Below are positions 6,656 through 21,510 of a DNA stretch of 64,000 bases, in pieces. The notes under the pieces were generated by a model. It made no database searches. It had not been told where the DNA came from and worked only from the letters and a program-made list of their open reading frames with translations. Source of the DNA: Chromatiales bacterium. Its GTDB lineage: Bacteria; Pseudomonadota; Gammaproteobacteria; JAGRCI01. How positions within the stretch are numbered: position 1 is the stretch's first letter; each line of letters starts with the position of its first letter. The stretch lies in assembly GCA_020445565.1 (NCBI GenBank), contig JAGRGI010000031.1:19419-83418 (forward strand), given 5' to 3'. The translations under genes were made by a program, and so were the position numbers.

Positions 6656-6659
6656 CTAA
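6656..6659. repeat. Target-site duplication CTAA (left copy)
   Basis: Identical CTAA immediately outside both IS ends. IS5-group elements duplicate a 4-bp YTAR target. Confidence 0.8.
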
Positions 6660-7960
6660 CAGGCTGTTGAAATTCGCCCACCAGAGTCGACAATAGCGGT
6701 AACTCCCGGGCAGGATAGAAAACACGATGCGCGGCCCGGACCTTCAACAAGACACCCTGTTCAGCACGGCGAGCCCGGAGTCTCGGGTTCCCAAGGATCA
6801 TCCGCTGCGTCCGATTCGAGCCATGGTCGATCAGGCCCTGCGGGAACTCGATTCCCAGTTCGATGCGCTGTACTCGGTATATGGCCGAGATTCGATACCG
6901 CCGGAGAAACTGCTGCGCGCCCAGCTAGTGATGGCGCTGTATACGATTCGCAGCGAGCGGCAACTGGTCGAGCAGATCAACTACAACCTGTTGTTCCGCT
7001 GGTTCGTCGGGTTCTCGATCGATGATGAGGTCTGGAACCACTCGACGTTCACGAAGAATCGCGATCGGCTGTTGGGCGGCGACGTGGCTCGTCAGTTCTT
7101 CTCCCGGGTCCTCGGGCAGGCCGATCGGGCCGGGCTGCTCTCGAAGGAACACTTCAGCGTCGATGGCACGCTGATCGAGGCCCTGGCCTCGCACAAGAGC
7201 TACCACCCCAAGGATGAGGAGGGACCGCCGCCAGGCACCGGCGGACGCAACCCCTCGGTGGACTTCCGCGGCAAGCGGCGCAAACGTGACACCCACGAAT
7301 CAAAGACCGACAAAGATGCGCTGCTGTACACCAAGAGCAAGGGTCAGACCGCCAAACTCAGCTACCTGGGCCATCTGCTGATGGAGAACCGCCACGGGCT
7401 GGTGGTCGATACCCGCGTTACCCAGACCACGGGCACGGCCGAACGCGAGGCCGCCATCGCCATGGCCCGTGCGCTCAAGGTCGGACGACGGGTGACCCTG
7501 GGCGCGGACAAAAACTACGATACCCGAAACTTCGTCGCCGACTTGCGCCACGCCAACGTGACCCCTCATGTCGCGCAGAACACCACCAACCGCGCGTCGG
7601 CAATCGACGCCCGCACCACCCGACATCGCGGCTACGCCACGAGTCAGCGTTTTCGCAAGCGCATCGAAGAATGCTTCTGCTGGGCCAAGACCATCGGCGG
7701 GATGCGCAAAAGCCGCTTTGTCGGCCGCCAGAAACTGGACTTCTCATTCGTCCTGACCATGGCGGCCTCCAACCTGGTGCGCATGCGCAATCTGGGGGTG
7801 GCGTCATGCTGAGAGCGGCAGGTCCGTGGGAGTGGTCCGCCTACAAAGCGGAAAACTCGGACCAAGTTGCCAATTCAGGCGCTACAACCTTCATTGCTCT
7901 CGATCCCAGCTGCCCGCCGCGGCATGTGGCGGCTCAAGAACAGTACATTTCAACGGCCTG
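6660..7960 (+). mobile_element. IS5-family insertion sequence, intact (1301 bp)
   Basis: Terminal inverted repeats are CAGGCTGTTGAAAT (6660-6673) and the reverse complement of 7947-7960, CAGGCCGTTGAAAT (13/14 match). A direct 4-bp CTAA duplication flanks it at 6656-6659 and 7961-7964. It holds a single DDE transposase ORF. Confidence 0.9.
6727..7812 (+). CDS. IS5-family DDE transposase
   Basis: 361 aa. The N-terminal DUF772-type block reads HPLRPIRAMVDQAL..LYS..GRDSIPPEKLLRAQLVMALYTIRSERQLVEQINYNLLFRWFVG. The DDE triad context is FSVDGTLIEA, LGADKNYD and RIEECFCWAKT..GMRKSRFVG. Confidence 0.92.
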   Translation: MRGPDLQQDTLFSTASPESRVPKDHPLRPIRAMVDQALRELDSQFDALYSVYGRDSIPPEKLLRAQLVMALYTIRSERQLVEQINYNLLFRWFVGFSIDDEVWNHSTFTKNRDRLLGGDVARQFFSRVLGQADRAGLLSKEHFSVDGTLIEALASHKSYHPKDEEGPPPGTGGRNPSVDFRGKRRKRDTHESKTDKDALLYTKSKGQTAKLSYLGHLLMENRHGLVVDTRVTQTTGTAEREAAIAMARALKVGRRVTLGADKNYDTRNFVADLRHANVTPHVAQNTTNRASAIDARTTRHRGYATSQRFRKRIEECFCWAKTIGGMRKSRFVGRQKLDFSFVLTMAASNLVRMRNLGVASC

Positions 7961-7964
7961 CTAA
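7961..7964. repeat. Target-site duplication CTAA (right copy)
   Basis: See the left copy. Confidence 0.8.
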
Positions 7965-8283: not shown

Positions 8284-8868
8284 ATGGGCAGTCCGCTACC
8301 GAATGGGGGAAGTCGCAGCACACCGCGCCGCTGGAGCCGTAGTACGTGGCTAGCTGTAAGCTTCGTCTCCGTTTTGGCCGTTATAGCCTTGTCGGGTCCG
8401 GACTCGCCCCCCCCACCAGTCCAGACTCCTCCTGCAACAACGGTCACAGCACAAACGCTTCCGACAATCACGTCACAACCCCAGGCGGCCAGTCAAACAC
8501 ACATCGCCTGCCCGAATCTCGATCTGAATGGTCATTGGCAGGGACAGTTCGTCAATACACGCCGGGCAAGTCCCGAGTCCTACTCGATGCAGATGCACGT
8601 GGCAGGTATGCAGGCGGGACAGATGCGTGGCTCATTGCACTGGCCCGACATCAAAGATGTGTACACAGAGATGGTCGGTACGGCCGCCGGTTGCAAGGTG
8701 CTATTCACCGAGACCCGGGTCATCCGCGGGCCGTCCAGAAGCGTAGTACTGAACGGCCGTTATCAGGGAGTGTACGATCCGACGGGCGACACCATCACAG
8801 GGAAATGGCTGGAGCCGCGAGGTTTGCGCGAAGGCGGTCAGTTTCAAATCAAAAGGGTATCGCTATGA
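8284..8868 (+). CDS. Membrane-anchored hypothetical protein (N-in, one TM, Pro/Thr linker, beta-rich domain)
   Basis: 194 aa. TM segment WLAVSFVSVLAVIAL, then the linker PPPPVQTPPATTVTAQT. The overlapping 8346..8903 frame is Arg-rich and looks like an off-frame artefact. Confidence 0.65.
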   Translation: MGSPLPNGGSRSTPRRWSRSTWLAVSFVSVLAVIALSGPDSPPPPVQTPPATTVTAQTLPTITSQPQAASQTHIACPNLDLNGHWQGQFVNTRRASPESYSMQMHVAGMQAGQMRGSLHWPDIKDVYTEMVGTAAGCKVLFTETRVIRGPSRSVVLNGRYQGVYDPTGDTITGKWLEPRGLREGGQFQIKRVSL

Positions 8869-8914
8869 CGGCGATCGCGACATTCGGCCCTCTCCACTTC
8901 TGACAGGAATCCAA

Positions 8915-9655
8915 ATGACTGAACCGCTCCGCCCACAGCCAAAGCCCGTGAAGTCGACATCGCGCCCCCAATCAGGCTCATCGGGCAAGTCAGGTGCCGT
9001 GACGCGCAATGTCGGCACTTCGAATGCAGGCAATTCCGACTCGTCCGCCACGGCTGGTCCGCCCGCAAGTACCACCCTACCCACACCTCGCTGGCTGATC
9101 GCCGCGGTCGCAACGGCCGCCGTTGCCTTGGGGGCATACTTGCTCCTGCCGGGTGCCGGAACCTGGAACGGTGCGGAGAATCAGGCACCGCAATATCAAC
9201 ATCACCTTCCTCTTGCGGCGCTGAGCACGATCCCGCCGGTGCTGGTTTCCGATGACGACATCGATCATGAGACCACCCAGGTGGCGGTGGCCGCCGCGAA
9301 ATCCGGCACCACCGCCAAAGGACTGACACCGATGTCACCTCAAATGAACCAGGAACTGATTCAAGGCGATATCGATTTCTATTCCATGCATTTCTACGAC
9401 ACCTGCGCGGAAGACGGGGATATCGTCAGCGTGTCGCTGGACAACGGCACGACTTACGGTCCGATACCCATCACCCATCGCGGTACGACGATCAGCATTC
9501 CAGTGAACAAGAGCAAGCCGCCCCGTATCACCCTGCACGCGCTAAAGGACGGTGACGGCGGTGTTACCGTGGGCGTGAAGACCAGCGACGGCGTGTGGTA
9601 CAGCGCGGTGCTGCCCGAGGGTGCCACTCAACCCATTCCCATGAAATTCAACTGA
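8915..9655 (+). CDS. Membrane-anchored hypothetical protein
   Basis: 246 aa. Ser/Gly/Thr-rich N-terminal tail, TM segment WLIAAVATAAVALGAYLLL, and a C-terminal beta-rich domain (GDIVSVSLDNGTTYGPIPITHRGTTISIPV). Confidence 0.65.
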   Translation: MTEPLRPQPKPVKSTSRPQSGSSGKSGAVTRNVGTSNAGNSDSSATAGPPASTTLPTPRWLIAAVATAAVALGAYLLLPGAGTWNGAENQAPQYQHHLPLAALSTIPPVLVSDDDIDHETTQVAVAAAKSGTTAKGLTPMSPQMNQELIQGDIDFYSMHFYDTCAEDGDIVSVSLDNGTTYGPIPITHRGTTISIPVNKSKPPRITLHALKDGDGGVTVGVKTSDGVWYSAVLPEGATQPIPMKFN

Positions 9656-9659
9656 CACC

Positions 9660-9758
9660 ATGCAGCAACAGTTTCTCGCCCTCTGGAACAAGTCGGTTCA
9701 CTTTCGGGTGGCCGTAGCGCTGACCCTGATGGGCCTGGCAATTCTGTTGGTTCATTGA
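9660..9758 (+). CDS. Candidate 32-aa membrane micro-protein
   Basis: Not in the ORF track (too short). ATG 9660, TGA 9756-9758. Reads MQQQFLALWNKSVHFRVAVALTLMGLAILLVH. It exactly fills the gap between two genes, 4 nt after the previous stop and 6 nt before the next start. Confidence 0.35.
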   Translation: MQQQFLALWNKSVHFRVAVALTLMGLAILLVH

Positions 9759-9764
9759 TTCGCG

Positions 9765-10931
9765 ATGCTCAATAACCCCTTGATTAAGACACTGTTGCTG
9801 TTCGTCGGCGCGTGGTTCCTGCTGACGCTCCTGAAAGGGCTGTGGCCACCGCTGCTGTGGATCGCCGTGATCCTGTCGACGGCGCTGGCTGCAACGCTAT
9901 GGATACTGGAGTATCAACGCGATTTGGCCTTTCGCCTGTACATGGACAATCCGGTGATTGGTCCGTTCATCGAGGGCGTCTGCAAGTTGACCGGAAGGCA
10001 GGTTCCCATCCAGGGCGGCCAGAGCGAACCGGTTCCGCCGGCTGCTCAGACCACCGCGGACCTTCAGGACCAGCGCCTCGCCCCTCCCACCAAACTGACG
10101 AATGACCAGGACTTCATCGGCGCCAGCCAATACCTGAAAAAAGAAGTTCGCGGTTGTGACGACGTCATAGATTCCCTGCTCGATGGCCTGCGCAACGCCA
10201 TCCGCTTGCGCGGCCGCGTGGGCAGAGACCTTACCCTGCCGCCCCTGGCAAGTTTCCTGCTCGCTGGCCGCGAGGGTCTGGGAAAACGCTATCTGGCCGA
10301 GCGGGTCGCGGCCATGCTCTATGATCAGGGTCCGGTCACGGAGATCGACCTGCGCGATCGCTACGACCACCTGCAGGAGTTGGTCTCGGCCGCCAAACGC
10401 CAGCCCAATCAAACTCTGGTGATCGAAAACATCGACGCTGCCGACGAACGGTTCATCGACAAACTGGCCAACCTGCTGGCCGGCCAAGAACTGATGGACG
10501 CAGAATCCGGTACGCCGGTGAGTTTCCGCAACACCGTGATCTTTCTGGTCTCCCACCGGCCGGCCGACGGATTCGAAAACGTGACCAACAGCCAGCGAAC
10601 CATGATGGCCGGGATGGTCTCCGAGACGCTTGGACTGCCCCCGGTGCTGGTGAACTACCTGCACGGCTACTACGGATTCACCTTGCCTGCGATGATGGAA
10701 CAGGCGCAGGTGGTCACCCTGCTCATCGAGCGAGAATGTGCCAAATACGATCTGACGGTGCAACGCATAGACGCGGAGATCCTAGCTCGCGAGGTCAAGG
10801 CCATCAGCGACCATGGCGCCTTCGACATCGCACCGGGGCGCATCGCCCAACGCCTCAAGAGCGTAATTTCCGATGCCATTGGTGATCAAACACATTCGGT
10901 ATCGGTCACCCAGGACAACTACGGACGCTAA
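9765..10931 (+). CDS. Membrane-anchored, catalytically degenerate ClpB-D2-like AAA+ paralogue
   Basis: 388 aa with two N-terminal TM helices. It is collinear with the next gene, but the motifs are eroded. Walker A reads LLAGREGLGKRYLAE where the neighbour has FLGPTGTGKTELAK. Walker B reads TLVIENIDAA where the neighbour has LILFDEIEKA. The Arg-finger block reads LVNYLHGYYGF where the neighbour has IVGRIDRVYVF. Confidence 0.6.
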   Translation: MLNNPLIKTLLLFVGAWFLLTLLKGLWPPLLWIAVILSTALAATLWILEYQRDLAFRLYMDNPVIGPFIEGVCKLTGRQVPIQGGQSEPVPPAAQTTADLQDQRLAPPTKLTNDQDFIGASQYLKKEVRGCDDVIDSLLDGLRNAIRLRGRVGRDLTLPPLASFLLAGREGLGKRYLAERVAAMLYDQGPVTEIDLRDRYDHLQELVSAAKRQPNQTLVIENIDAADERFIDKLANLLAGQELMDAESGTPVSFRNTVIFLVSHRPADGFENVTNSQRTMMAGMVSETLGLPPVLVNYLHGYYGFTLPAMMEQAQVVTLLIERECAKYDLTVQRIDAEILAREVKAISDHGAFDIAPGRIAQRLKSVISDAIGDQTHSVSVTQDNYGR

Positions 10932-10934
10932 GCC

Positions 10935-11924
10935 ATGCCTGACCTCAGCGATCTCACCGATCTGGCAAAACTCACCGCCCTGCTCAATGCCCAGGAGTCG
11001 GGCAAGCGCCGAGCCATCGACGAGGCCGAGATGGCCAAGGCCCTGCGCGGCCGTGTCAAGGGACAGGACCATGTGGTGGACGACGTGTCACGCCTGATCC
11101 GCCTGCAATGGGGCAAGGAAGAGCGCAAGCGGCCAATAGCGAACCTGCTGTTTCTCGGCCCCACCGGCACGGGCAAGACCGAACTGGCCAAGGCCATGGC
11201 GGAGTACCTCTACGAAGACGAAAAGAACATGCTGCGCTTCGACTGCAGCGAGTTCTCCGGCCCGGAGGCGAAATCGCGCTTGGCTGGCGTGCCCAGCGGC
11301 TATGTCAGCGCCGACAAAGGTGGCCAGTTGACGCGCCCGGTGCTCAACAACCCCAAACGCCTGATCCTTTTCGACGAGATCGAGAAGGCCTATTCGGAAG
11401 TCTTTGACCTGTTCCTGCAATTGATGGGCGATGCGCGGCTCACCGAGCAGGGTTCGGGAAAGGTGGCCGACTTCACGCAGTCCATCATCGTGCTCACCAG
11501 CAACGCCGAGGCGGATGCTATTGGCAAGCTCCAGGCGGAGATTTCGGACTACCACGAGATGGTGAATGCCGTGAAATCGCACCTGGCGGATACCAAGGTC
11601 TTCCGGCCCGAGATCGTCGGTCGAATCGACCGCGTTTACGTCTTCAAGCCGTTAGAGGGTATGGTCATCGCCGAAATCGTCGTGCTGAAGATGAGTTCAC
11701 TGGCAAAGGAGTACGGGCTGGAACTGGCCTATGTTGACCCGCACCTGATCATCGACGCCATGGGTAAGGGCAACAAACTGGCGCGTTTCGGTGTCCGCGA
11801 ATTGGACCGCGTAATCAACGAGGACTTCGGCGAGGCCATGTACGAGGCCCGTCAGGCCGGCGGCAAACGGGTACGGCTCGATCAGGACGACGACGGCGGC
11901 CTGCGCATCAGCCCGGCTAACTGA
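10935..11924 (+). CDS. Stand-alone ClpA/ClpB D2-type AAA+ ATPase (single ring module)
   Basis: 329 aa. Nearly motif-for-motif ClpB NBD2: GQDHVVDDVSRLI, FLGPTGTGKTELAKAMA, GVPSGYVSADKGGQLT, LILFDEIEKAYSEVFDLFLQLMGDARLT, IIVLTSN, FRPEIVGRIDRVYVFKPL and FGVRELDRVI (sensor 2). Confidence 0.85.
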   Translation: MPDLSDLTDLAKLTALLNAQESGKRRAIDEAEMAKALRGRVKGQDHVVDDVSRLIRLQWGKEERKRPIANLLFLGPTGTGKTELAKAMAEYLYEDEKNMLRFDCSEFSGPEAKSRLAGVPSGYVSADKGGQLTRPVLNNPKRLILFDEIEKAYSEVFDLFLQLMGDARLTEQGSGKVADFTQSIIVLTSNAEADAIGKLQAEISDYHEMVNAVKSHLADTKVFRPEIVGRIDRVYVFKPLEGMVIAEIVVLKMSSLAKEYGLELAYVDPHLIIDAMGKGNKLARFGVRELDRVINEDFGEAMYEARQAGGKRVRLDQDDDGGLRISPAN

Positions 11925-11937
11925 AGGGAATGCGCCC

Positions 11938-13857
11938 GTGAGCGCGGAAGTCGCCAAGGCCAAGCAGGAATTCTGGCGGATTCCGTCGATCACCATCGCG
12001 GTGCTGATGGTGATCCACCTGCTGCCAAAGGCACAGATGCAAGCCAATCTGCGCCTGCTGCTGACGCTGGCCCTGTTCGCTGCACTTTTCATCCTGTTGT
12101 GGAGCATGACGGCGCCACGAGAGCGTTACATGGAACGGCTCTACGCGTGGCGCTATGAGGACGCAGGGCCGGCCTTGGAAAAGTCCTGGCGCCTCTACCT
12201 GCATTCGCTCACCCGTGTGATCCGAATCGTCGCGGTGATTCTGGCGACCTTCCTGGCCACCACCGCACTCAAGACGCTCAGCCTTTGGCCAAGCTTTTCG
12301 TCGTTTTCTCTCCTGGCCCCCGTGTACCAGGGGCTCTGGTGGCTATCCGTGGCGGCCCTGGGCCTGTTTCCCTTCGTTGCCGGCGGCCTGGTGGCCGAAG
12401 CCATGCAGCGGGGACGCTTGTTGCGCGAACAGGTGGCGACGTCAGACTTCGAGCCCCGCAAAGACCTGCCGACCAACGAGGAGGCGGCGGCCCAGTCCGC
12501 TCGCGCCCCTGTGGAGGCCGTGAACGATAGCCGCTTCCTCGCCGGCAACTTCGAATGGTCCTGGGAAGACTTCTACAAGAACTGCATCGTCTTCGGACAG
12601 GCCGGAACCGGCAAGACGGTCTGTGTGCTCAATGCCCTCCTGGACGGACTGCTGCTTTCGAGCCAACTGTCCAGCCATCAACCCAGTTGCCTGATGCTGG
12701 ACCCCAAGGGGGATTTCCACGCCAAAATCCAGAACCTGACGCGACTGCGTGGACGCGAGGCAGACCTGCTTCGTTTGGACCCCACGGACCTGGAACACAG
12801 CATTCGCTGGAACCCGCTGGACAGCGACGACGATGAACTGGAACTGGCCGGCCGTTTCGCGGCTGTCATGGAGGCCCTGGGAATGAAGTCCGACAACGAT
12901 TCCTTTTGGGTGGACTCGGCAAAGAAATTCATTCGCCACGCCATTGCCCTGATCCGTCTCACCAATCCGCCGGGGGAACCCCCCTCCTTCGAACAGATCA
13001 ACGCCATGGCGTCCAGTTTCGGCCCAATCTCGGAACGGGCGGACCGTCTGGCCGACGATGACCCGAGAGGCGACCGATGTCTGGCCTATTTCGCCGACGA
13101 GTGGGCCAATCTCGCCGACGAGACCCGCTCCAGCATCCAGGCCAACATCACCAACATGATCGACCCCTTCCTGCTGGCGCCCTACGATACCTTGTTCTCG
13201 GGACGTTCCACCGTGCGTATCGCCGACGTAGTGGACCGGGGAAAGCTGCTCTACGTCTATATGCCCATTGCCGACAAGGAGGTCATGGCGCGCATGGTCT
13301 GCACCTTCATCAAGATGGAGTATTACCGCGAGGTGCTCAAACGCCCGGACAAGAAACGACCCAGTTTCTTCTTCTGTGACGAGTTCCAATCATTCTTCAC
13401 GGTCAGCCAGGGCAAGGGCGACGCCGATTTCTTTGAACGTTCGCGCCAGAGCCGCCACGCCAATATCATCGCCACGCAGAACCTCAATGCCCTCACCAAG
13501 CAGACCCGCGAAAAGGATCCGGTGTTCAACCTGCTGGGCAACTGTGCCGTGAAGATCTTCCTGCGCAATACCGACCGGGACACCAACGAGTACGCCTCCA
13601 ATCTGTTCGGCGAACAACTGGTTGCCATGCTGAGCCAGAGCCTCAGCAGCCACGGAAAGGGTCTGGGCGGCGGCGGTGGGGGCGGCAGCCAGGGCGCCAA
13701 CCTGCAGTATGATGCCAAGGTGCGGAAGGAGGTGTTTACCGAGTTGGCCGTACCCTCGCGGGACGACGGCACCGACTATTGTGAAACCGTCATTCACTTG
13801 GCTTCACGGGGTCGGGTGGCGAAGCTGAAGCAACGTTGGCGGGTATATCCGCTATGA
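11938..13857 (+). CDS. Membrane-anchored type IV coupling protein-like ATPase (TraD/TraG/VirD4 family, FtsK-HerA superfamily)
   Basis: 639 aa, GTG start, about 4-5 N-terminal TM helices. Walker A is IVFGQAGTGKT. The sequence continues LMLDPKGDF, WNPLD and Walker B FFFCDEFQSFF. The T4CP C-terminal block reads SRHANIIATQNLNALTKQT...NCAVKIFLRNTDRDTNEYASNLFGE. The tail is Gly-rich. Confidence 0.8.
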   Translation: MSAEVAKAKQEFWRIPSITIAVLMVIHLLPKAQMQANLRLLLTLALFAALFILLWSMTAPRERYMERLYAWRYEDAGPALEKSWRLYLHSLTRVIRIVAVILATFLATTALKTLSLWPSFSSFSLLAPVYQGLWWLSVAALGLFPFVAGGLVAEAMQRGRLLREQVATSDFEPRKDLPTNEEAAAQSARAPVEAVNDSRFLAGNFEWSWEDFYKNCIVFGQAGTGKTVCVLNALLDGLLLSSQLSSHQPSCLMLDPKGDFHAKIQNLTRLRGREADLLRLDPTDLEHSIRWNPLDSDDDELELAGRFAAVMEALGMKSDNDSFWVDSAKKFIRHAIALIRLTNPPGEPPSFEQINAMASSFGPISERADRLADDDPRGDRCLAYFADEWANLADETRSSIQANITNMIDPFLLAPYDTLFSGRSTVRIADVVDRGKLLYVYMPIADKEVMARMVCTFIKMEYYREVLKRPDKKRPSFFFCDEFQSFFTVSQGKGDADFFERSRQSRHANIIATQNLNALTKQTREKDPVFNLLGNCAVKIFLRNTDRDTNEYASNLFGEQLVAMLSQSLSSHGKGLGGGGGGGSQGANLQYDAKVRKEVFTELAVPSRDDGTDYCETVIHLASRGRVAKLKQRWRVYPL

Positions 13858-13878
13858 TTCGGTAAAACCCATCTCGCC

Positions 13879-14001
13879 ATGTTTCGCTTCGGATTCGTGT
13901 TCAAGGTCGTTGTCGTCATCTTCGTGCTCCTTTGGCTCACAGACTTTGGAGAGCAGCTCATGAATGACGTGCTTGCCTACTATTCCTGGATGCGCCCGTG
14001 A
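13879..14001 (+). CDS. Candidate 40-aa membrane micro-protein
   Basis: Not in the ORF track. Reads MFRFGFVFKVVVVIFVLLWLTDFGEQLMNDVLAYYSWMRP. Its TGA (13999-14001) overlaps the GTG start (13998) of the next ORF as GTGA. Confidence 0.4.
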   Translation: MFRFGFVFKVVVVIFVLLWLTDFGEQLMNDVLAYYSWMRP

Positions 14002-14312
14002 GTGCCACCGACAAAGATCGCCGCCAGGTCCGGCTGAGCGGATTTGGGCAGGCCCAACCCGAAGCCACCGTGGACCCCCCCTCCACGAGCGAAGCAGCCG
14101 ACAGTGCCCCCCGTTTCCGGGTCGAAGGTTTTGCTGCTCCGAAGGCTTATCTGGAGATTACCGGGCCGAAACATGCCGAGGCATCGGTCAGCGCCACCAC
14201 TGACACCGACACCGAACGTCAGGCGCGCCGCCGGACCTGGAAGGCCAAACTGCGGGAAAAGGCCGGACGGAACGCCCAGAGCAAAACTCACCAACCCGAA
14301 GTATCGCCATGA
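13998..14312 (+). CDS. Small hypothetical protein carrying RLSGF-type motifs
   Basis: 104 aa, GTG start. The stop overlaps the next ATG (ATGA at 14309-14312). The N-terminus RRQVRLSGFGQAQPEATV resembles the N-terminus of the next protein, and a second copy reads RFRVEGFAAP. Confidence 0.5.
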   Translation: MSATDKDRRQVRLSGFGQAQPEATVDPPSTSEAADSAPRFRVEGFAAPKAYLEITGPKHAEASVSATTDTDTERQARRRTWKAKLREKAGRNAQSKTHQPEVSP

Positions 14313-15187
14313 CCACCAAGAAATTTCGCCTATCCGGGTTCGATGCTACGGAACCGGAAACATCCGGCCAGGTATGGATACTCACTGGCGAAAGCCGGCC
14401 CTATCCTTTACACATCCGGGCCATGGGGGCGGACCAGGAAAGCCGTCACACCTGGCCAGGCGACCTTTCGCTGGGGCAATTGGGACTGAGCCGTGATGGC
14501 AGCCTGGCAACCGCCACCGTCAATCAGACCGGCACAACCAGCCTGTGGACCCTTGGCGTTGAAGGCGGAGAACCGCAGCAGGTCAAGGAGACCGGCAGGT
14601 CCGCAATCTATCTTCCCAGGCTTTCTCCCTCCGGCGAGTACCTGGCCTATCTGGAAACACCGGGACAGGGCTACCCGCCGCGGCGTGGGGCGATAGCGCA
14701 GCTGGTCATCCTGAAACGCGCAGGCAAACAATGGACAGAACAGACTGCTGAGTTCGAATGTCTGCTGTCTCCCTGGGATTGGGGGCAGGACGACAGCACC
14801 CTGGTACTGACCCGCGCCGATGGATCACTGGAAATGGTGCGTCGCAGTGACGGCGGCACCGATTCCGTCATCGCCGAGCAGGGAAGTCATCCGCGTTTTT
14901 CGCCAGACGGCACCGCACTCGTTTACGCCGGTGACGCCGATCTGATGGTGGTACGCGGTGGGAAGTCAGACGCACTCGGCGCAATCACCAATACCCGCGG
15001 ACTCGCCTGGACTCCCGACGGTTTCGGTGTCGTGCTTGCACAGGAACTGAGCAACTGGAACTTCGCTGTTTCACACCGCACTCTGGATGGCGGAGCCGAA
15101 CGCGAGCTGTTTTCGCGTCCACGCCTCAGTACCTTGGACGTGTTGCCCCGAAAGCCGGATTGGCCCAGCGATGAAACGGTAGGTTGA
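14309..15187 (+). CDS. PD40/TolB-like beta-propeller repeat protein
   Basis: 292 aa. Repeated xSPDG/SRDG blades: LSRDGSLATAT, LSPSGEYLAYLE, FSPDGTALVYAG, WTPDGFGVVLAQ. No signal peptide. The N-terminus reads KKFRLSGFDATEPETSG. Confidence 0.7.
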   Translation: MTTKKFRLSGFDATEPETSGQVWILTGESRPYPLHIRAMGADQESRHTWPGDLSLGQLGLSRDGSLATATVNQTGTTSLWTLGVEGGEPQQVKETGRSAIYLPRLSPSGEYLAYLETPGQGYPPRRGAIAQLVILKRAGKQWTEQTAEFECLLSPWDWGQDDSTLVLTRADGSLEMVRRSDGGTDSVIAEQGSHPRFSPDGTALVYAGDADLMVVRGGKSDALGAITNTRGLAWTPDGFGVVLAQELSNWNFAVSHRTLDGGAERELFSRPRLSTLDVLPRKPDWPSDETVG

Positions 15188-15192
15188 CGACC

Positions 15193-15825
15193 ATGGCCAA
15201 CGACACACCTCCGCCCGGAGCGGGCAATGCGAACGAGCAAGCCCGCGACCATACGATGTCCGTCTATTCGGCCCGATCCAGCGCCGGCTGCCCGACCGGG
15301 CATGTGTGGTATTCGGTGCAGGATCCCCAGGGCAAACAGGAGTTTGTCCACTACGGACCGCGCGACGGCATGGACATTCGTGCGGCGACCTCCGGCTGTC
15401 CGGGCTATGTCAGCGATGCGGACGACGTACCCTATGATTCCCGCACCGATATCCCGATTAACAAAGAGCAATACGACAAACTGCGTGAGTTCCCTCAGTC
15501 ACAAACCAAAGACGGGCAGATGCACGGCGAGTCCAAGGGTGATTACCAGGTCTTTGCGCATCTCACCAAACAGGAGAACCAGAACAACTGCGTCTCGTTT
15601 ACCTTCAACGCCGCTGACCACGCCCATGTGGAAGAGGCGCGTCAATACCAGGGCCTGACGCCGAACGACGTGGCCAACAAACTCGACCGCAACCCCTCGC
15701 AACAGGAACAGCAGGTCGCACAGCAGGACTTCTTCGCTAAGGACCGGGCGGAGCCTGCCAGGGAACTCGGCCAGGCCAAGGAGCAGGGCCCACCGAAAGA
15801 GACGCACAAGCCCAAGGCGAAGTAG
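15193..15825 (+). CDS. Hypothetical protein with LRAT/H-REV107-like (permuted NlpC/P60) His-His-Cys signature
   Basis: Reads GHVWYSVQDPQGKQEFVHYGP, then about 80 aa, then NNCVSFTFNAADH. This mirrors the LRAT-family pattern HxxIYxG..(V/I)xH...NCEHF. The start could be ATG 15193 or TTG 15184, which overlaps the previous stop. The domain call is inference. Confidence 0.45.
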   Translation: MANDTPPPGAGNANEQARDHTMSVYSARSSAGCPTGHVWYSVQDPQGKQEFVHYGPRDGMDIRAATSGCPGYVSDADDVPYDSRTDIPINKEQYDKLREFPQSQTKDGQMHGESKGDYQVFAHLTKQENQNNCVSFTFNAADHAHVEEARQYQGLTPNDVANKLDRNPSQQEQQVAQQDFFAKDRAEPARELGQAKEQGPPKETHKPKAK

Positions 15826-16746
15826 ATGTCCGAGAAGCTATTCACCGACACCGGTTTGGACTGGGCTCAGATGACCGCGGCGTCGGACCAACGCGCCGGG
15901 GCATTATTCGAACTGGGGCAACTCGATTCCCTACCGGATACGTCGGAAATCCGTCGGCGCAAGGACACCCTGTGCGGGCAGATCGGCCTTGCCGAGGGCG
16001 GCAACGAGCCCGGACTGGGCTGGGAAGAACGGGTGCTGGCACGAACCATTCCTGCCACGTCTCGGCGCGCTGCCGCACCCAAGGCAACGATAGCGCTGGC
16101 CCAACCTGGGGCAGGCGGTGGTACCCTGCTGGAAGGTTTGCGGCGTACCCAAACCGGGCTAACCTGCCTGGACAGCGCCGAGATGGTATTGATTCACCCT
16201 GGTTTCTCCAAGGCACTGGCCAGCAGCGGGGAAGCGGACCTGCAACGCATCGACGGCGATGCTGACCGCCTTGCCGGTCTGATCCTGCAACAAGCAATCG
16301 AACTGGGATTGCATCTGGCCATACCGGCAAGCTTTCAAAACGCCGATGCCGCGCGGGGGCTGCTGACAGCCTTGCGCGACAACGGCTACCAGGTGGAGAT
16401 CCTGTTCGCCTGCGTGGCGGAAACCACCAGTCACGCCGTGATCCAGCGTTGGCCGCCTTGGCGGACAAGGGCCTGTCTTGGTACAAGCACCGTTGTCCGG
16501 TCGTCCCACGCGACGACCTGCGAGATGCTCCGACGCACGCTGGCGACGCTGGAAGCATCCGGGTTGGCGGACCGAATCACCACGGTTACTGCCGATGGCT
16601 TGTTACTCCGACCTGTTGACGGCGAGACACTGACGATCTGCGAATCCCACCTTCGTAGTATCCCCATTTCGGCCGAGGCTGCGTCGGACCGAGTCGACTG
16701 GCGCACCCATGCGAAAGTCCGACTCCGTGAACGCGCGCAACGTTGA
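15826..16746 (+). CDS. Zeta-toxin/AAA_33-like fold with degenerate P-loop
   Basis: 306 aa. The ATG abuts the previous TAG. The Walker-A position reads LAQPGAGGGT (Lys replaced by Gly). It is followed by zeta-like blocks: LIHPGFSKAL, DRLAGLILQQAIELGLHLAIPASF and LRDNGYQVEILFACVAE. Confidence 0.45.
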   Translation: MSEKLFTDTGLDWAQMTAASDQRAGALFELGQLDSLPDTSEIRRRKDTLCGQIGLAEGGNEPGLGWEERVLARTIPATSRRAAAPKATIALAQPGAGGGTLLEGLRRTQTGLTCLDSAEMVLIHPGFSKALASSGEADLQRIDGDADRLAGLILQQAIELGLHLAIPASFQNADAARGLLTALRDNGYQVEILFACVAETTSHAVIQRWPPWRTRACLGTSTVVRSSHATTCEMLRRTLATLEASGLADRITTVTADGLLLRPVDGETLTICESHLRSIPISAEAASDRVDWRTHAKVRLRERAQR

Positions 16747-16767
16747 TTCCCAAAATCTGGAACAGGA

Positions 16768-17613
16768 ATGATGTTATTTACACGAACAACCGCTTTGCTC
16801 ATGCTTCTTTTTACTTGCTTCGCGTCATTGCCATCTCTGGCACAGGATTCGGCCCCCGTGTCCGTTACGGTTGACCTGTTTCTGAGCGACGGAAGCAATC
16901 TCACGCAGCGGGAGCTGCTGGGAATAGACAGCGGAATGCTGCTGGTAAAAGGCAAATACGGCAACCAGCAGATTCCGCTCACCGATGTACGTCAAATCGT
17001 CATGGCTGGCGGCAGCCAGGGCCGCAAGGGCGTACAGCTTCGATTCGGACAGATCGGCGCAACGGTCAAGGAGATGAAGAACGGGCGTTGGTTTTTCGAG
17101 CTACAGGACGAAGCCGGCACGCTTGCCGTCATGGACGCCTCCCAGGTCCTTTCCGTCAACGTTACCGAACCTCGCATCAATAGCGAGAACCTCGACGTAC
17201 GGTCGATCAATGTTCTGCAGTGGATCAGCGATCACAAGCCCTTCGGCAAGGAGGGTAACTGGGACATGGACGTGCGCGAAGTGAATATCGCCGAAAACAT
17301 GATCGTCGTGAGCGCGGACGTGTGGAGCGACGACCAGGGGATCCTGAATTCGCGAGGCTGCTTCCTGGCCTGCCGCATCCAGGACAACCAGGGCCGGATA
17401 TCCGAACTGGTATGGACGGAGATTTTCAAGGTGCCACCCAAGGTGGACACCTATCGCCTGCAGATACGCTGCCCGGTCCCCCCCGCCAGCGCCCGCTCCG
17501 CTTCGATTCAGCTACGTACCGGCGATGACGGCGATTACGCGGGCCGCAGGGAAGATAGGTGTACGGGCAATCAGTGGCGGTCGCTCCCCGCCATAAATAT
17601 GAACCTGCTTTGA
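16768..17613 (+). CDS. Secreted hypothetical protein, paralogue 1 (281 aa)
   Basis: Signal peptide MMLFTRTTALLMLLFTCFASLPSLAQD. Collinear similarity to the next gene. Confidence 0.7.
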   Translation: MMLFTRTTALLMLLFTCFASLPSLAQDSAPVSVTVDLFLSDGSNLTQRELLGIDSGMLLVKGKYGNQQIPLTDVRQIVMAGGSQGRKGVQLRFGQIGATVKEMKNGRWFFELQDEAGTLAVMDASQVLSVNVTEPRINSENLDVRSINVLQWISDHKPFGKEGNWDMDVREVNIAENMIVVSADVWSDDQGILNSRGCFLACRIQDNQGRISELVWTEIFKVPPKVDTYRLQIRCPVPPASARSASIQLRTGDDGDYAGRREDRCTGNQWRSLPAINMNLL

Positions 17614-17707
17614 GAGCCTGTCACGCATGTGACAACAGGTCGTACGGTTCAATCGGCGATGTATGTTTGAAGCTGGGTCTCCCGACCCCCGACGAGGTAA
17701 ATGACAA

Positions 17708-18553
17708 GTGCATATCCAACTCAAAAAGATAATGACTATCCCATGCCTTACCCTGAGCCTGTTTGCCACCCCGTGGGCCACCGCGGACAACACGCCGGTC
17801 ACCGCCACGATCAATCTGCGCTCGGGCGATGCTATCAATGACGTAGAGATCCGTGCCATCAGCAACGGCGTAGCGCTGCTCAAGGGGCCCTATGGCACCT
17901 TGCAGGTTCCACTACAGGATGTCGCCAATGTCGTCTTTCCTGGCGGCGACGCTTCACAGCCGGGCGTGGTGCTGGATACGGGTGGTTACAACGCAGAACT
18001 CAAGGAGATGAAAAACGACAACTGGTCGTTTTCCCTGCGGGATGTGGATGGTGGCTTCACCTTGCCGAGTGCCGCGCGCCTGCGATCGATCAATCTGGAG
18101 AAGGCAGGCGCATCCAGCACCGCTGCCTCTTCCACCCCGCTGAGCTCGAAAGGATGCAACGTCAAGGAATGGACTTACGCCTACGAACCCTTCGGCAACA
18201 GCAACTGGAACTTCAAGATTGAAAAACTCGCCGCCATAGGGCCCGAGCTTGTGCTTCAGGCCCAAGGCAGCAGCCGTGACGGTAGAGTACGACGCGCAGG
18301 CTGCGTCATCACCTGCAAAACTGTTGACGAAAAGGGCCGGGAAAGCACGGAACTGGTCAACGACAGAGCCCGAGTAGACATCAAGCCGGCGGGCATCAAC
18401 GTGCGCTGTCCTTTACCGGCTGACGATACCCAGTCCTTCACCCTCTATCTGCGCACCGGCGAGGCCGGCAACAAGGAATCCGGCGACTACTGCGAAGGCG
18501 ACGACTGGAGGCCACTGCCCACGATCAACACCCAACTGCTTTCCAGTCAGTGA
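17708..18553 (+). CDS. Secreted hypothetical protein, paralogue 2 (281 aa from GTG 17708; ATG alternative at 17732)
   Basis: Signal peptide MTIPCLTLSLFATPWATADN. Blocks shared with paralogue 1: V(T/S)xxxxLxxG, LLKGPYGTLQVPLQDV matching LLVKGKYGNQQIPLTDV, AELKEMKNDNWSF matching ATVKEMKNGRWFF, and C-terminal DDWRPLPTINTQLL matching NQWRSLPAINMNLL. Confidence 0.7.
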   Translation: MHIQLKKIMTIPCLTLSLFATPWATADNTPVTATINLRSGDAINDVEIRAISNGVALLKGPYGTLQVPLQDVANVVFPGGDASQPGVVLDTGGYNAELKEMKNDNWSFSLRDVDGGFTLPSAARLRSINLEKAGASSTAASSTPLSSKGCNVKEWTYAYEPFGNSNWNFKIEKLAAIGPELVLQAQGSSRDGRVRRAGCVITCKTVDEKGRESTELVNDRARVDIKPAGINVRCPLPADDTQSFTLYLRTGEAGNKESGDYCEGDDWRPLPTINTQLLSSQ

Positions 18554-18558
18554 TAAGG

Positions 18559-18603
18559 TTCCGGAAAAGCCGACTGTTGTACGACGTCGGCACCGATCCG
18601 GAA
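18559..18603. terminator. Possible bidirectional hairpin between convergent genes
   Basis: TTCCGGA (18559-18565) pairs with TCCGGAA (18597-18603). An inner GCCGAC/GTCGGC stem is also present. There is no U-tract, so this is weak. Confidence 0.25.
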
Positions 18604-18612
18604 ACTTCATTG

Positions 18613-21510
18613 CTACAGACAACTTCCTTCGCGAATCTTGATCTCGACCGCCGGACCGGCCTGCTTGCCGGCGTTCACTACGCTGATTCGCAGGTCGCCG
18701 TCCTTGCCGCCGGGCAGATCCACAGACCACCAGGTGCGGTCGGTCAGTCCCGCCTGGGTCCACTTTCCCGCGCGCTGCGCCTCGATTCGATAAGCGGAAA
18801 AATCACAGGATTCCAAGGCCGACCAGTCCAGAAACGCCTGACCTCCGAAGACCTTACACTGGACCCCTTGTACGGGTCCCAACAGTCCAAAAATTCGGGC
18901 ACCGACGATTTTCGACAACTGGCCTGCCCGATCATCGCCGTCCAGGGCACGTATGCTGTAATAGTTGGTCTTGCACGGCAGCGGTTGCGCATCGACCCAC
19001 TCGCCGCCCTGCACCACTGCCACGCGCTGCGTCTCGTCCGGCGTCAGTTCCAGGTCGGAGCGATAGACTGCGAAGCGTGCATCGGTATTTTCCGCAACGC
19101 CCCAACGCAGCGTAACGGATTTATCGCCGGGCGTGGCCCGCAGGCTACCGACCGCCGCCGGTGGCATTTGATAATTTACGTCCGGAGAGATCGCCTCGCC
19201 ACCGCCGTCCACCTTCGCGACGATCCGGTAGCGGTAGCGATGTCCATATTGCAAGCCACGATCGACAAATCGCGTTTCCTGCTGTTCGGCGATCTTGCGG
19301 GCTTCAGCACCGTCGTCGGAGCGCAGGATGTCATAGCCTCGCAACAGCTTGCGACTACCCTCCACCGACCAGCTCAGACTGACCTCGCCCGGTGACATCC
19401 AGGCCGGTTCAGCCTTGGGGGCGCTGACCACGACCTTCGGCGCGGGAAGTAAGAACCGCGCAGACGGACTGGATTTGTCCTCCCTGCCGTCGACCAAGGT
19501 CGGAATCACCTTGTATTCGTAGTCGGCGGCAAACTTCACCGTGTCATCCATGTAGACAAAGCCATTGCCGGTCTCTACCCGGTCCCTGCTCAAACGGATC
19601 TTGCGCGGTGCCTGTCCGTCTTCACTGCGGATCACGGTAAAAAAATCCACTGCTTGCGGATTACCCTTGCCGTTCCACTTCACCACGGCAGTGCGGGTGT
19701 TTTCATCGAGGGGGCTGGTCTGGAGTTCGCTCAAGGCAAAGCTCGGCGCCTCGAGTTTCAGCTTGGCGAGCGGACTGAAGTCGCCGAGTTTGTCGTTCAA
19801 TTGAACGGCGGCGACACGGTAGGTGTACGCCACGCCGTAGTCCGCGTCCTTGTCCACGTAGACGGTCCCATTGGGGACCGACGCAATGCGCTTCTCCTTG
19901 CCATTCTCCTGGGTGCGAAAAATGGAAAATGACTTGACCGCCCTCGGGTCGCCGCGCCCCTGCCAGGCGAGTTGTACCTCCTTGGCGAAACGGGGCCCCG
20001 CCGTGGCCGTCAGCGAGGTGACCGGAAACAGCGGCACTGGCAGGCTGGCGGCGACCGGAATGCTGGACACCTCATCCTGCCCGACCCTAGCCGTGACCCG
20101 GTAGCGATATGCGACGCCATACTCTGCCGAGGAATCGGTGTATCGCTGGTCGCGAGTGGTCGCGATGGGCTTGAAGGCGCCTCCATCCGACCGTTCGACC
20201 ACATATTCGCCTCGAAAACCGTTGTTCAAGGACTGCCAGCCGAGTTCCACGACCTTTCGCGCCGACTGCACTTCCGCCTGCAGGACAGGCGGTATTAGCA
20301 CTACCGTGGGCAACGGACGCGACGCTACGGGAGGAATCGGATTAGGCGCCGCGGGTACTGGCGGCGTTGCCGGCACCGGGTTGGCGCTGGGCGTCGTGGC
20401 AGATGCGGACGTTTGGGTCTGTGTCGGAGGCGTGGACTGGACAGTAATGGGAACATTCGTTTGTCCGTCATCGCGGCTGACAAAATAAACGCCCGCTGCC
20501 AGAAGGACTCCGATCAATCCCCAGGTGGTTGCGGAATAGCGCTTGCGGACAGCACCACCCTGTTCGGCTCCCCCCTGACGCTGAGAATAGGATTCGGAGC
20601 CTACCGCTGCTCCGCCCTGAGACTCGGTACCAACGTCTGCCGTGGTCGGGCCGGATGACCAAGCCCCCAAAGTGTCACCTCCCCCGCCCAGGTGTCGGGA
20701 AAGTTCGGCCGCGGTGGGGCGCCGCTCGGGATCGGGGTTGAGCATACGCTCCAGATCGACGGCGATTTCACGATCCAGGCGGGGTGGGATCTGCGGAATC
20801 ACTTCCCGTGAACGAACCAGATCATAGAGGCTGGAGGGCATGAGATTGGCTGGATCGTTCGGATCCTCGGCACAGTTGAGCAGCACCAGACCGAGACTGT
20901 AGATGTCCGACTTCTCGCCGATCACTGCCTCGCTACGCAATTGTTCCGGCGAGGCAAAGGCTGCCTTGAGCGGCCGGCCGGCCTCCACGAACACGGTCTT
21001 TTGATCGACCCGTAACTGTGTGGCGATTCCAAAATCGATGAGTTTCGCCTGCGCCGGATCTCCATCGGGCAGAATGATGTTGTCGGGTGCGATATCCCGG
21101 TGCACCACGCCTTTGGCGTGGCAGGCACTAAGCCCGCTGAGCAGGCGCCGCTCCAGCACGGCGATGGAATCGTTGGAAAGCGGCCCCTGTTCCAGAAGTC
21201 CCGACAACGGTACTCCCTGGACATAGTCCATTACCAGGCAATAGCTGTTGAGGGCCTCATCGCGTTTGTACTGATAGAACGCCACCACGGCGTCGTGGCG
21301 CACCGCCAGCAGGGCCTGGGCCTCGCGCTTGAACTGGGCAGCGAAACGCGGATCGCCGCCATAATTCGCGGCCACCACCTTGACGGCGAACTGTCTATCG
21401 TCCAACTCCGGGTCACTCACCAGATAGACGACGCCCATCCCGCCACGGCCGAGTTCGCGCACCACCGAATAGTGACCGAGCAGTCGGGTACCCGGACGTA
21501 TCGCCACCAT
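18613..21510 (-). CDS. Hanks-type Ser/Thr protein kinase with TM helix and six Fn3-like extracytoplasmic repeats
   Basis: The likely start is MVAIRPG (ATG 21510), not the ORF-track start at 21684. Kinase motifs: GRGGMGVVY, FAVKV, HRDIAPDNIIL, DFGIA, SPEQ. TM segment WGLIGVLLAAGVYFV, then a Pro/Thr linker. Six roughly 90-aa repeats each end in a YxYRV/YKV-type strand (YGVAYRYRVTA, YGVAYTYRVAA, ADYEYKVIP, YGHRYRYRIVA, NYYSIRAL, LRISVVNA). Confidence 0.85.
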   Translation of the reverse strand: MVAIRPGTRLLGHYSVVRELGRGGMGVVYLVSDPELDDRQFAVKVVAANYGGDPRFAAQFKREAQALLAVRHDAVVAFYQYKRDEALNSYCLVMDYVQGVPLSGLLEQGPLSNDSIAVLERRLLSGLSACHAKGVVHRDIAPDNIILPDGDPAQAKLIDFGIATQLRVDQKTVFVEAGRPLKAAFASPEQLRSEAVIGEKSDIYSLGLVLLNCAEDPNDPANLMPSSLYDLVRSREVIPQIPPRLDREIAVDLERMLNPDPERRPTAAELSRHLGGGGDTLGAWSSGPTTADVGTESQGGAAVGSESYSQRQGGAEQGGAVRKRYSATTWGLIGVLLAAGVYFVSRDDGQTNVPITVQSTPPTQTQTSASATTPSANPVPATPPVPAAPNPIPPVASRPLPTVVLIPPVLQAEVQSARKVVELGWQSLNNGFRGEYVVERSDGGAFKPIATTRDQRYTDSSAEYGVAYRYRVTARVGQDEVSSIPVAASLPVPLFPVTSLTATAGPRFAKEVQLAWQGRGDPRAVKSFSIFRTQENGKEKRIASVPNGTVYVDKDADYGVAYTYRVAAVQLNDKLGDFSPLAKLKLEAPSFALSELQTSPLDENTRTAVVKWNGKGNPQAVDFFTVIRSEDGQAPRKIRLSRDRVETGNGFVYMDDTVKFAADYEYKVIPTLVDGREDKSSPSARFLLPAPKVVVSAPKAEPAWMSPGEVSLSWSVEGSRKLLRGYDILRSDDGAEARKIAEQQETRFVDRGLQYGHRYRYRIVAKVDGGGEAISPDVNYQMPPAAVGSLRATPGDKSVTLRWGVAENTDARFAVYRSDLELTPDETQRVAVVQGGEWVDAQPLPCKTNYYSIRALDGDDRAGQLSKIVGARIFGLLGPVQGVQCKVFGGQAFLDWSALESCDFSAYRIEAQRAGKWTQAGLTDRTWWSVDLPGGKDGDLRISVVNAGKQAGPAVEIKIREGSCL

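Follow-up and report, generated by a model that had tools for sequence, protein, structure and literature searches.

What kind of system is encoded by a run of thirteen tightly packed genes in which an ATPase resembling type IV coupling proteins (T4CPs), a pair of AAA+ proteins and several small membrane proteins stand next to possible toxins? The run lies at positions 8284-18553 of a 64,000-nucleotide stretch from a Chromatiales bacterium (GenBank assembly GCA_020445565.1, contig JAGRGI010000031.1), hereafter called the window, and its genes are numbered g1 to g13 (Table 1). An initial sequence-only reading had taken all thirteen genes for a single cassette. As judged from related loci, however, the unit of conservation is six genes, not thirteen. 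These genes, g2-g7 (8915-14001), apparently encode a conserved membrane ATPase machine that is so far undescribed, and on balance we favour, by a modest degree, the view that they form a toxin-export system built on the coupling ATPase and the AAA+ pair.

A six-gene core is conserved across phyla

Relatives of the coupling-protein-like ATPase g6 numbered 260 at E values up to 1e-5, and the best 120 of these 260 were nearly all full-length, with 44-66% identity. Their hosts belong to Acidobacteriota (Bryobacterales), Binatota, Planctomycetota, Gemmatimonadota, Verrucomicrobiota, Desulfobacterota and the Alpha- and Gammaproteobacteria. Cultured carriers are Roseobacter sp. S98, Neorhizobium sp. 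LjRoot104, Seohaeicola saemankumensis and Methylosinus sp. Sm6, and the complete genomes CP194010 (Roseobacter sp. S98) and CP051526 (Tepidisphaera) contain the module. For the comparison, 54 genome loci and 78 metagenome loci were fetched; eight loci had precomputed gene-by-gene Pfam tables.

Across at least seven phyla (~130 loci fetched), g2, the g4/g5 pair, g6 and g7 share one gene order. By phmmer, g2 was detected in 44 of 58 loci, g4 in 31 and g5 in 38. Of the 54 genome loci, 44 extend 5 kb or more upstream, and among these g2 was present in 39-40 and the AAA+ pair in 41-42. The micro-proteins are part of this arrangement. In nearly every locus, and in every phylum, the ATPase gene is followed by a hydrophobic open reading frame (ORF) of 33-58 residues with an N-terminal transmembrane (TM) segment and a [YF]xWMxP end. 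A strict regular expression recovered it in at least 44 of 51 assessable genome loci. As its position directly after the coupling ATPase and its ending indicate, g7 is a member of this family, and it gave phmmer matches in two loci (L061 and L062). Likewise, the non-proteobacterial loci (class A) carry a micro-ORF of ~32 residues between g2 and g4, with an LWxxSxxFR motif and a TM segment matching g3.

In contrast, g1, g8, g9, g10, g12 and g13 had no relatives in ~135 related loci, even where the ATPases are 59-66% identical (jackhmmer, phmmer and HHalign). The claim of a thirteen-gene cassette was therefore not upheld: co-occurrence outside the source genome, in the same order and in at least seven phyla, holds for g2-g7 only.

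This conservation bears directly on the idea that the locus is a decayed integrative conjugative element (ICE) with the coupling protein as its sole survivor. An insertion sequence (IS) of the IS5 family does lie 320 bp upstream, and zeta toxins, the family of g11, are common on mobile elements. However, the six core genes, the two micro-ORFs among them, occur intact and in synteny in ~130 loci from many phyla, the catalytic residues are invariant, the core genes show a strong codon-position GC bias, and the Pfam scans revealed no integrase, relaxase or VirB gene nearby. The eight loci with Pfam tables contain neither VirB nor relaxase families. The g6 family found no match among 72,556 plasmids at E 1e-20 and none among 2.9 million viral contigs (IMG/VR). 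The sequence-only reading had named, as the finding that would undo it, a g6 gene normally embedded in a complete type IV secretion system (T4SS) or ICE; none of these searches placed it there. Thus, the conservation data effectively refute the ICE remnant, which we consider extremely improbable.

Proteins of the core

By hydropathy, g1, g2, g3 and g7 have one TM segment each, g4 has two and g6 has four. TM prediction, motifs and Pfam and PDB matches together confirmed what had been claimed for the micro-ORFs, the degenerate and intact AAA+ pair and the TraD/VirD4-like ATPase. The set of single-pass and polytopic membrane proteins likewise stands for g1-g4, g6 and g7, although g1 is not part of the conserved core.

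From its N-terminus, g2 consists of a Ser/Thr/Gly-rich tail, one TM helix and a C-terminal helical and beta-sandwich domain that bears the motifs YDTCAEDGD and DGxGGVTVG. The tail is probably disordered; it is taken to be cytoplasmic and the C-terminal domain periplasmic. In the AlphaFold2 (AF2) model, residues 90-246 mostly have a predicted local distance difference test (pLDDT) score above 90. Foldseek found no PDB match for this model at E below 0.001, only generic beta-sandwiches. Meanwhile, the g2 family profile collected 910 clusters at 50% identity among 1.84 billion representatives.

The AAA+ pair consists of one degenerate and one intact member. The degenerate member, g4, matched the second nucleotide-binding domain (NBD2) of ClpB in the PDB at E 1e-8, with Walker A reading GLGKR, Walker B reading VIEN ('EN' replacing 'DE') and the pore loop deleted. 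Because this degenerate AAA+ domain stands behind two TM helices, g4 would be a membrane-anchored pseudo-ATPase, one that could bind ATP and is probably hydrolysis-dead. Its partner g5 (329 aa) matched AAA_2 at 3e-40 in Pfam and aligned to ClpB residues 561-851 (E 3e-51). Walker A, the GYVS pore loop, Walker B, sensor 1, the Arg finger and sensor 2 are all intact in g5, which is predicted to be an unfoldase or threading motor.

In Pfam, g6 matched T4SS-DNA_transf (1.4e-20) and TrwB_AAD_bind (2.2e-18) above their cut-offs, and also TraG-D_C. Its four predicted TM helices fall within residues 12-153, and the orthologue in the proteobacterial loci (class B) has the same four. Walker A (GxxGxGKT) and the Walker B DE are invariant in 28 sequences of the family. 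When the g6-family profile was compared with the PDB, DotL/IcmO was the sole relative (4e-6). A glycine run, GKGLGGGGGGGSQG (window 13640-13720, residues ~568-590), lies between the core of g6 and its C-terminal segment, at a place where the family consensus is variable.

Table 1. Positions and main properties of the features in and around the locus.
Feature	Position	Strand	Description
g1	8284..8868	+	194-aa single-pass membrane protein; locus-specific, outside the conserved core
g2	8915..9655	+	core; single-pass membrane protein with putative periplasmic beta-sandwich (family profile, AF2)
g3	9660..9758	+	core; 32-aa membrane micro-protein; LWxxSxxFR motif, then TM helix
g4	9765..10931	+	core; two-TM pseudo-AAA+, ClpB-NBD2-like, degenerate
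g5	10935..11924	+	core; soluble single-ring AAA+ ATPase, ClpB-NBD2-like, all motifs intact
g6	11938..13857	+	core; VirD4/TraD/TraG-family coupling-protein-like ATPase (Pfam); four-TM N-terminal domain
g7	13879..14001	+	core; 40-aa micro-protein; N-terminal TM helix, C-terminal YYSWMRP
g8	13998..14312	+	104-aa low-complexity protein; GTGA overlap with g7; positively charged C-terminal tail
g9	14309..15187	+	292 aa, no signal peptide, locus-specific; weak PD40/TolB-like beta-propeller similarity
g10	15184..15825	+	213-aa orphan without relatives; Lys-rich tail end
g11	15826..16746	+	zeta-toxin-family protein (Zeta_toxin); degenerate P-loop; Arg-rich C-terminal tail KVRLRERAQR
g12	16768..17613	+	281 aa; signal peptide (hydrophobic N-terminus, SLA/QD site); paralogue of g13
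g13	17708..18553	+	281 aa; signal peptide; paralogue of g12; four conserved Cys
IS5-family insertion sequence	6657..7963	+	transposase, inverted repeats; context, outside the system
Ser/Thr protein kinase, convergent	18613..21684	-	Pkinase 1.3e-36 plus fn3; one TM helix, extracytoplasmic FN3-like repeats

The proteobacterial version and accompanying modules

The proteobacterial loci keep the g2 homologue, the ATPase and the g7 micro-ORF, and their two-TM AAA+ protein has the same unusual 'IEN' Walker B as g4. Their intact soluble AAA+ protein belongs to another clade, of the AAA plus AAA_lid_6 (CbbX/EccA) type. The proteobacterial version is an independent confirmation of the core architecture. 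In classes B and C a protein of 590-620 aa, c10, has an N-terminal anchor composed of the g3 motif and a TM helix. The suggestion that c10 (610 aa) is a diverged T4CP was rejected, since HHalign gave a probability of 0.1% and the N-terminal anchor alone matched g3. A third architecture was seen in some Alphaproteobacteria and a Zoogloeaceae metagenome-assembled genome (L046, L048, L052, L054 and L055), in the order of a 586-614-aa protein with a g3-type anchor that clusters with the ATPase family, one or two proteins of ~240 aa and a coupling ATPase of 726-741 aa.

Further genes accompany the core in particular lineages. Three signal-peptide proteins, one of them CsgG-like, are encoded divergently from the core in proteobacterial loci. 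The loci of Acidobacteriota and Gemmatimonadota have a mobile side module, CsgG-x-kinase-c27, at varying positions beside the core. A fused FHA-FHA-ABC_tran-ABC2_membrane exporter adjoins the module in ~20 of 56 genome loci (exporter loci L002, L014, L015, L019-L025, L027, L037, L041, L043, L045 and L063), often alongside a PP2C phosphatase, an M48 peptidase and a Ser/Thr kinase. The exporter and PP2C stand next to the core in Planctomycetota and in a close relative of the window system, and in L063 the exporter lies within the core operon, directly upstream of g2. In 17 of 58 loci, a kinase gene lies no more than 10 kb from the module.

In the window, hidden Markov model (HMM) searches for the CsgG-like, c14, c15, c27 and FHA-ABC families were negative. 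The genes upstream of the IS were considered as outer-membrane parts and rejected, as they encode an MglA-like GTPase, a roadblock protein and a response regulator, all of them cytosolic. The convergent kinase downstream of g13 is a possible regulator, its link to the system being weak.

Variable toxin genes follow the core

The genes downstream of the core vary from locus to locus, and polymorphic-toxin and immunity domains dominate among them. Pfam matches were counted for 80 ORFs downstream of the core in related loci. Zeta_toxin was the most frequent (7), followed by Peptidase_S8 (4), Endonuclea_NS_2 and Rib_hydrolase (3 each), VgrG3-like peptidoglycan hydrolase, Gln_amidase, Ntox4 and PG_binding_1 (2 each) and Imm74 (1). 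A NADase-like protein, Ntox4 and an HNH nuclease were found as further cargo families, and the giant cargo proteins of Acidobacteriota (1,270-1,977 aa) are shuffled modular multi-toxin proteins. Zeta homologues adjoin the ATPase, nearly always downstream, in 10 genome loci and 12-13 metagenome loci (~23 together). Hence, g11 belongs to the commonest cargo family.

Most of the downstream cargo proteins lack Sec signals, though some of them must act outside the cytoplasm. In five unrelated toxin families, 27 of 31 members have a hydrophilic tail whose last 25 residues carry a net charge of +3 or more. This charge was reached by 24% of 670 background ORFs (p ~1e-10, uncorrected for relatedness). 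The corresponding tails in the window have net charges of +4 (g8), +2 (g10) and +3 (g11). No shared targeting domain was found among the cargo by BLAST. In Agrobacterium, VirD4 classically recognises its substrates by a positively charged C-terminal tail; Vergunst et al. reportedly described in 2005 that VirB/D4 substrates there end in this way, and in this respect the module cargo resembles them. Toxin and immunity domains downstream, few Sec signals and charged tails all lend support to the earlier suggestion of an export apparatus with effectors and immunity proteins.

A constant ATPase module with swappable effectors is also the typical layout of a defence locus. The T4CP-like ATPase and the AAA+ pair would then sense or intercept incoming DNA or proteins and release toxins inside the cell (abortive infection), and nucleases, the NADase, proteases and nSTAND NTPases would suit such a role; an IS element also adjoins the locus. 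In PADLOC-DB 2.0, g6 matched mad8 (2.4e-13) and g5 matched PDC-M37B and DolB. However, these were generic ATPase-domain matches only; no complete system was recognised, and g4, g9, g10, g11 and g12 had no match. Moreover, peptidoglycan hydrolases, peptidoglycan-binding giants and Imm74 fit exported antibacterial toxins rather than intracellular suicide effectors, and the cargo consists of separate proteins of great diversity, some of them 1,000-2,000 aa in length. Neither restriction-modification nor CRISPR genes neighbour the module in the eight loci with Pfam tables, and other defence genes are likewise missing from the annotated neighbourhoods. The charged tails have no role in such a defence model, which we consider unlikely.

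Alternatively, the machine might move DNA or an envelope or surface component, with the toxin genes gathering beside it because the site is a variable island. T4CPs descend from FtsK-like DNA pumps, and the window cargo is mostly not recognisable as toxins. The planctomycete module is tied to the FHA-FHA-ABC2 exporter, to PP2C and to the M48 peptidase, which suggests a part in envelope biogenesis or signalling. A precedent is the Streptomyces TraB protein, which works without a T4SS according to a passage of PMC12857230. Nevertheless, the toxin genes are co-directional with the core and often translationally coupled to the g7 micro-ORF, and toxin families accompany the module repeatedly in independent phyla, the zeta family by itself in the ~23 loci mentioned above. 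The charged tail is common to these toxin families, and relaxase, oriT-type and DNA-processing genes are absent. A translocase for something other than toxins is thus improbable in our estimate.

Comparison with known systems

With T4CPs, g6 shares the nucleotide-binding domain (NBD), the N-terminal membrane domain and the TraG-D_C region; the NBD is given as the defining motif of T4CPs in a passage of PMC7431656. It differs from them in having four TM helices instead of the usual two and in scoring below every curated NCBIfam cut-off. The best model was conju_CD1115 (101 bits versus 250), and the cut-offs of the TraD, TraG and VirD4 models were far away. Furthermore, g6 has obligatory partners that are unfamiliar in T4SSs, namely the AAA+ pair, g2 and two micro-proteins, and its family had no match among the plasmids searched.

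Cognate T4SS channel and relaxosome families were absent from the window scans and from the eight annotated loci. The Pfam scan of the window covered ten operon products and g13 (all but the micro-ORFs g3 and g7), together with the flanking ORFs and the ten largest ORFs of the rest of the window, and gave no match to VirB-type, relaxase, pilin, Hcp/VgrG, integrase or phage families. The absence of such genes, noted from the sequence alone, was therefore borne out for VirB, relaxase, Hcp/VgrG and phage families within this scope. VirB4, which a passage of PMC12857230 names as the signature subunit of all T4SSs, had no candidate in the window apart from a weak match to g6 itself (TIGR00929, 6.9e-6, 24.6 bits versus a cut-off of 643). 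By the criterion given in that passage, the module would thus not be a T4SS.

It could still serve one. The core might form a coupling complex like DotL-DotM-DotN-IcmSW that passes toxins on to an unlinked T4SS or to some other channel of the envelope encoded in the same genome. By sequence g6 is a T4CP, its only PDB relative is DotL of the Legionella coupling complex, and no outer-membrane part was found in the window; known T4CPs always work with a channel, as is stated in part of PMC12857230. On the other side, the module keeps strict synteny from phylum to phylum, yet the loci with Pfam tables have no VirB gene within 10 kb of it, and no relative is carried by the plasmids searched. The carriers are lineages such as Planctomycetota and Acidobacteriota, and in other lineages the module is instead accompanied by CsgG-like lipoproteins or FHA-ABC exporters. 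We therefore give such a recruitment platform only a small chance.

Like the bacteria-killing T4SSs of Xanthomonas and Stenotrophomonas, the module neighbours genes for antibacterial-type toxins and immunity proteins. The toxins of those systems carry a VirD4-binding C-terminal domain, whereas no XVIPCD-like domain common to the module cargo was detected.

The ESX systems, to which the sequence-only reading had likened the locus by EccC and EccA, provide another comparison. A membrane ATPase of the FtsK/HerA superfamily, a cytosolic AAA+ protein, small membrane proteins and downstream toxin and immunity genes are common to both. The analogy proved apt in that the proteobacterial version uses an AAA plus AAA_lid_6 ATPase of the CbbX/EccA type, and FHA and Ser/Thr-kinase genes often adjoin the module. 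However, g6 has one NBD of the T4CP clade, not the three FtsK-like domains of EccC/EssC, and homologues of EccB, EccD, EccE and EssA/EssB were not detected with the module. WXG100 had no Pfam match in the operon products and was not among the commonest families in the 80 cargo ORFs. In addition, the module hosts are diderm Gram-negative phyla.

The two AAA+ proteins, g5 and g4, share homology with the second NBD of ClpB, ClpV and ClpA, but each has a single AAA+ ring domain and lacks the N-domain, NBD1 and the middle domain; one copy, g4, is moreover membrane-anchored and catalytically degenerate. The matches were partial: g5 aligned to the ClpV1 model at positions 559-826 only (162 bits versus a cut-off of 885) and scored 220 bits against the full ClpB model (cut-off 1232). 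The kinase, FHA and PP2C genes near the module recall the threonine-phosphorylation pathway of type VI secretion (T6SS), although TssB/C, Hcp, VgrG and PAAR are missing from the operon. Finally, an active soluble AAA+ protein paired with a membrane-tethered degenerate AAA+-like partner resembles Torsin with LAP1/LULL1, and g5 has a weak Torsin match in Pfam (2.6e-5). This is an analogy only, as g5 keeps its own arginine finger and the origin and location are unrelated.

No description of the module was found in the full-text literature of the library searched. The parts come from known superfamilies, and their assembly, as far as sequence comparison can tell, matches no defined secretion or defence system. 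The statement that the locus fits no known system therefore holds for PADLOC, the curated families and the literature searched.

A model of toxin export

From these comparisons we infer complex formation, substrate recognition, export and an outer-membrane route. In the export model, g5 would be held at the membrane by its dead two-TM paralogue g4, possibly as a mixed ring, and would engage and unfold cytoplasmic substrates through its aromatic pore loop. A g6 hexamer would recognise the substrates, probably, in the manner of T4SS coupling proteins, via their positively charged C-terminal tails, and would drive or gate their passage across the inner membrane. The membrane assembly would be completed by g2, with its putative periplasmic beta-sandwich, and the micro-proteins g3 and g7. 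The substrates would be Sec-independent toxins encoded just downstream, with g11, g10 and g8 as the candidates in the window, and g12 and g13 may be periplasmic immunity or accessory proteins. A more far-reaching version holds that g2-g7 are an unrecognised secretion system of diderms, apart from the type I to type XI systems (T1SS-T11SS), that it handles polymorphic toxins marked by positively charged C-terminal tails, and that the CsgG-like outer parts and the control by Thr phosphorylation (kinase, PP2C and FHA-ABC) are lineage-specific. This version falls a little short of an even chance in our judgement.

Several points weigh against toxin export. All of the evidence is comparative, and export would follow from it only by deduction. 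The window contains no outer-membrane channel or periplasm-spanning component, and we know of no coupling protein that translocates substrates across a membrane alone; a T4SS could be encoded elsewhere in the carrier genomes. The window cargo is atypical, as g11 has lost its P-loop lysine, g9, g10, g12 and g13 are orphans and g8 is perhaps non-coding. The background for tail charge came from a crude ORF caller, and its statistic takes no account of relatedness. Lastly, g6 resembles the defence protein mad8 (2e-13), and g5 resembles DolB and PDC-M37B.

If the export model is true, it would reveal a new secretion pathway in bacteria that abound in soil, fresh water and the sea, among them Acidobacteriota, Planctomycetota and roseobacters; how these organisms antagonise other bacteria is poorly known. 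A T4SS coupling protein could then be detached from its T4SS and rebuilt into another machine, which would bear on the old question of whether coupling proteins are inner-membrane translocases themselves. The cargo would supply a large catalogue of new toxins and immunity proteins together with a simple candidate export signal. In addition, the core contributes two micro-proteins with deep conservation; at 32 and 40 residues, they are of a size that gene callers often miss.

Locus-specific genes

The remaining genes of the run were compared with family and structure databases. For g1, no family in Pfam, PADLOC or NCBIfam exceeded the threshold, the PADLOC hit being marginal (E 0.0075). The coding status of g8 is uncertain because of its low complexity and an antisense ORF of equal length that overlaps it; it is a possible cargo or adaptor. 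The PD40 propeller claimed for g9 found weak similarity and no strong support, with one repeat matching PD40 at 1.5e-5 in Pfam and TolB chains at E ~0.008 in the PDB.

The proposal that g10 is LRAT/NlpC-like found no support, since there is neither a detectable relative nor a usable model. No match was returned by Pfam or NCBIfam at E up to 0.1, by PADLOC, or by the PDB at E up to 10; among 5.8 billion sequences g10 matched itself only, and its single-sequence AF2 model had a pLDDT of 41.

The assignment of g11 to the zeta family stands (Zeta_toxin 1.2e-13, 51.5 bits versus a cut-off of 22.3; PDB zeta structure 1gvn, 8.9e-6), whereas its P-loop is not intact. Walker A reads QPGAGGGT in place of GxxGxGK[ST], the lysine being gone, while most module-adjacent homologues keep GAGKS or GSGKT. 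Thus g11 is probably an inactive zeta homologue. The zeta homologues of L021, L023 and L039 also have degenerate P-loops, which suggests that loss of the kinase function is recurrent in this cargo family.

As had been recognised from the sequence, g12 and g13 are tandem paralogues with signal-peptide-like N-termini by hydropathy (34% identity, E 3e-44), and they are candidates for periplasmic immunity or accessory proteins. No relatives of g12 were found in the related loci, the PDB or the JGI metagenomes, and a scan of the latter with a g12/g13 pattern was empty. The kinase-adjacent 'c27' protein of Acidobacteriota has the same length of 281 aa but was rejected as a homologue of g12/g13 (HHalign probability 0.2%).

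A basic-x-RLSGF motif is common to the N-termini of g8 (RRQVRLSGFGQ, 13998-14060) and g9 (KKFRLSGFDA, 14309-14370), and a planctomycete cargo ORF (L015, 13177-13572) has the similar RRKIRLGSFAQ. With three cases only, it could be a short N-terminal signal or chance. A further ORF of 281 aa (18550-19395, +) has a GTGA overlap with the g13 stop and runs antisense to the FN3-like C-terminus of the kinase. It has the length of g12 and g13 but no similarity to them, and is most likely spurious.

Transcript, insertion sequence and other genes of the window

ORF listing and translation confirmed thirteen co-directional ORFs on the + strand and every junction that had been quoted for the tightly coupled run. 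Overlaps occur as GTGA at 13998, ATGA at 14309 and TTGA at 15184, and the TAG and ATG of g10 and g11 abut at 15825/15826. The remaining gaps are 3-46 nt, apart from the g12-g13 gap of 94 nt. On the + strand at 7800-19000, neither terminator-like nor promoter-like sites were seen, which is weak evidence for one transcript.

The IS5-family element was likewise found intact at the expected distance. Its transposase ORF (6727-7812) matched DUF772 and DDE_Tnp_1 in Pfam, its terminal inverted repeats (6657-6673 and 7947-7963) agree at 15 of 17 positions, and the element is flanked on either side by CTAA. Its presence indicates a recent disruption upstream of the operon. Neither an Rfam scan nor a tRNA scan of the window returned a match. 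As shown by Pfam scans, the window also carries EF-G, GatB, TilS and chemotaxis genes, which point to a chromosomal context.

A cytosolic module lies upstream of the IS (508-3007, -), with a response regulator (508-906), a roadblock/LC7-like protein (1098-1490) and a Ras/MglA-like GTPase (2471-3007) read from the translations. After the GTPase gene, two proteins of 402 and 257 aa, which the Pfam scan covered, had no family match. Directly beyond the kinase (21767-25476, -) are a multihaem cytochrome c (429 aa) and an 840-aa protein in which two cNMP-binding domains are fused to BFD-like [2Fe-2S], FAD and NAD oxidoreductase domains. Further downstream, an 852-aa protein (38059-40617, +) contains a T6SS Tle1-like phospholipase domain (1.3e-69), divergent from an 838-aa ORF without a Pfam match (35401-37917, -); T6SS core genes were not seen among the window ORFs scanned. 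The cluster at 42266-47811 (-) encodes CheA, CheB and a ParA/MinD-like ATPase, a chemotaxis set that fits a chromosomal location.

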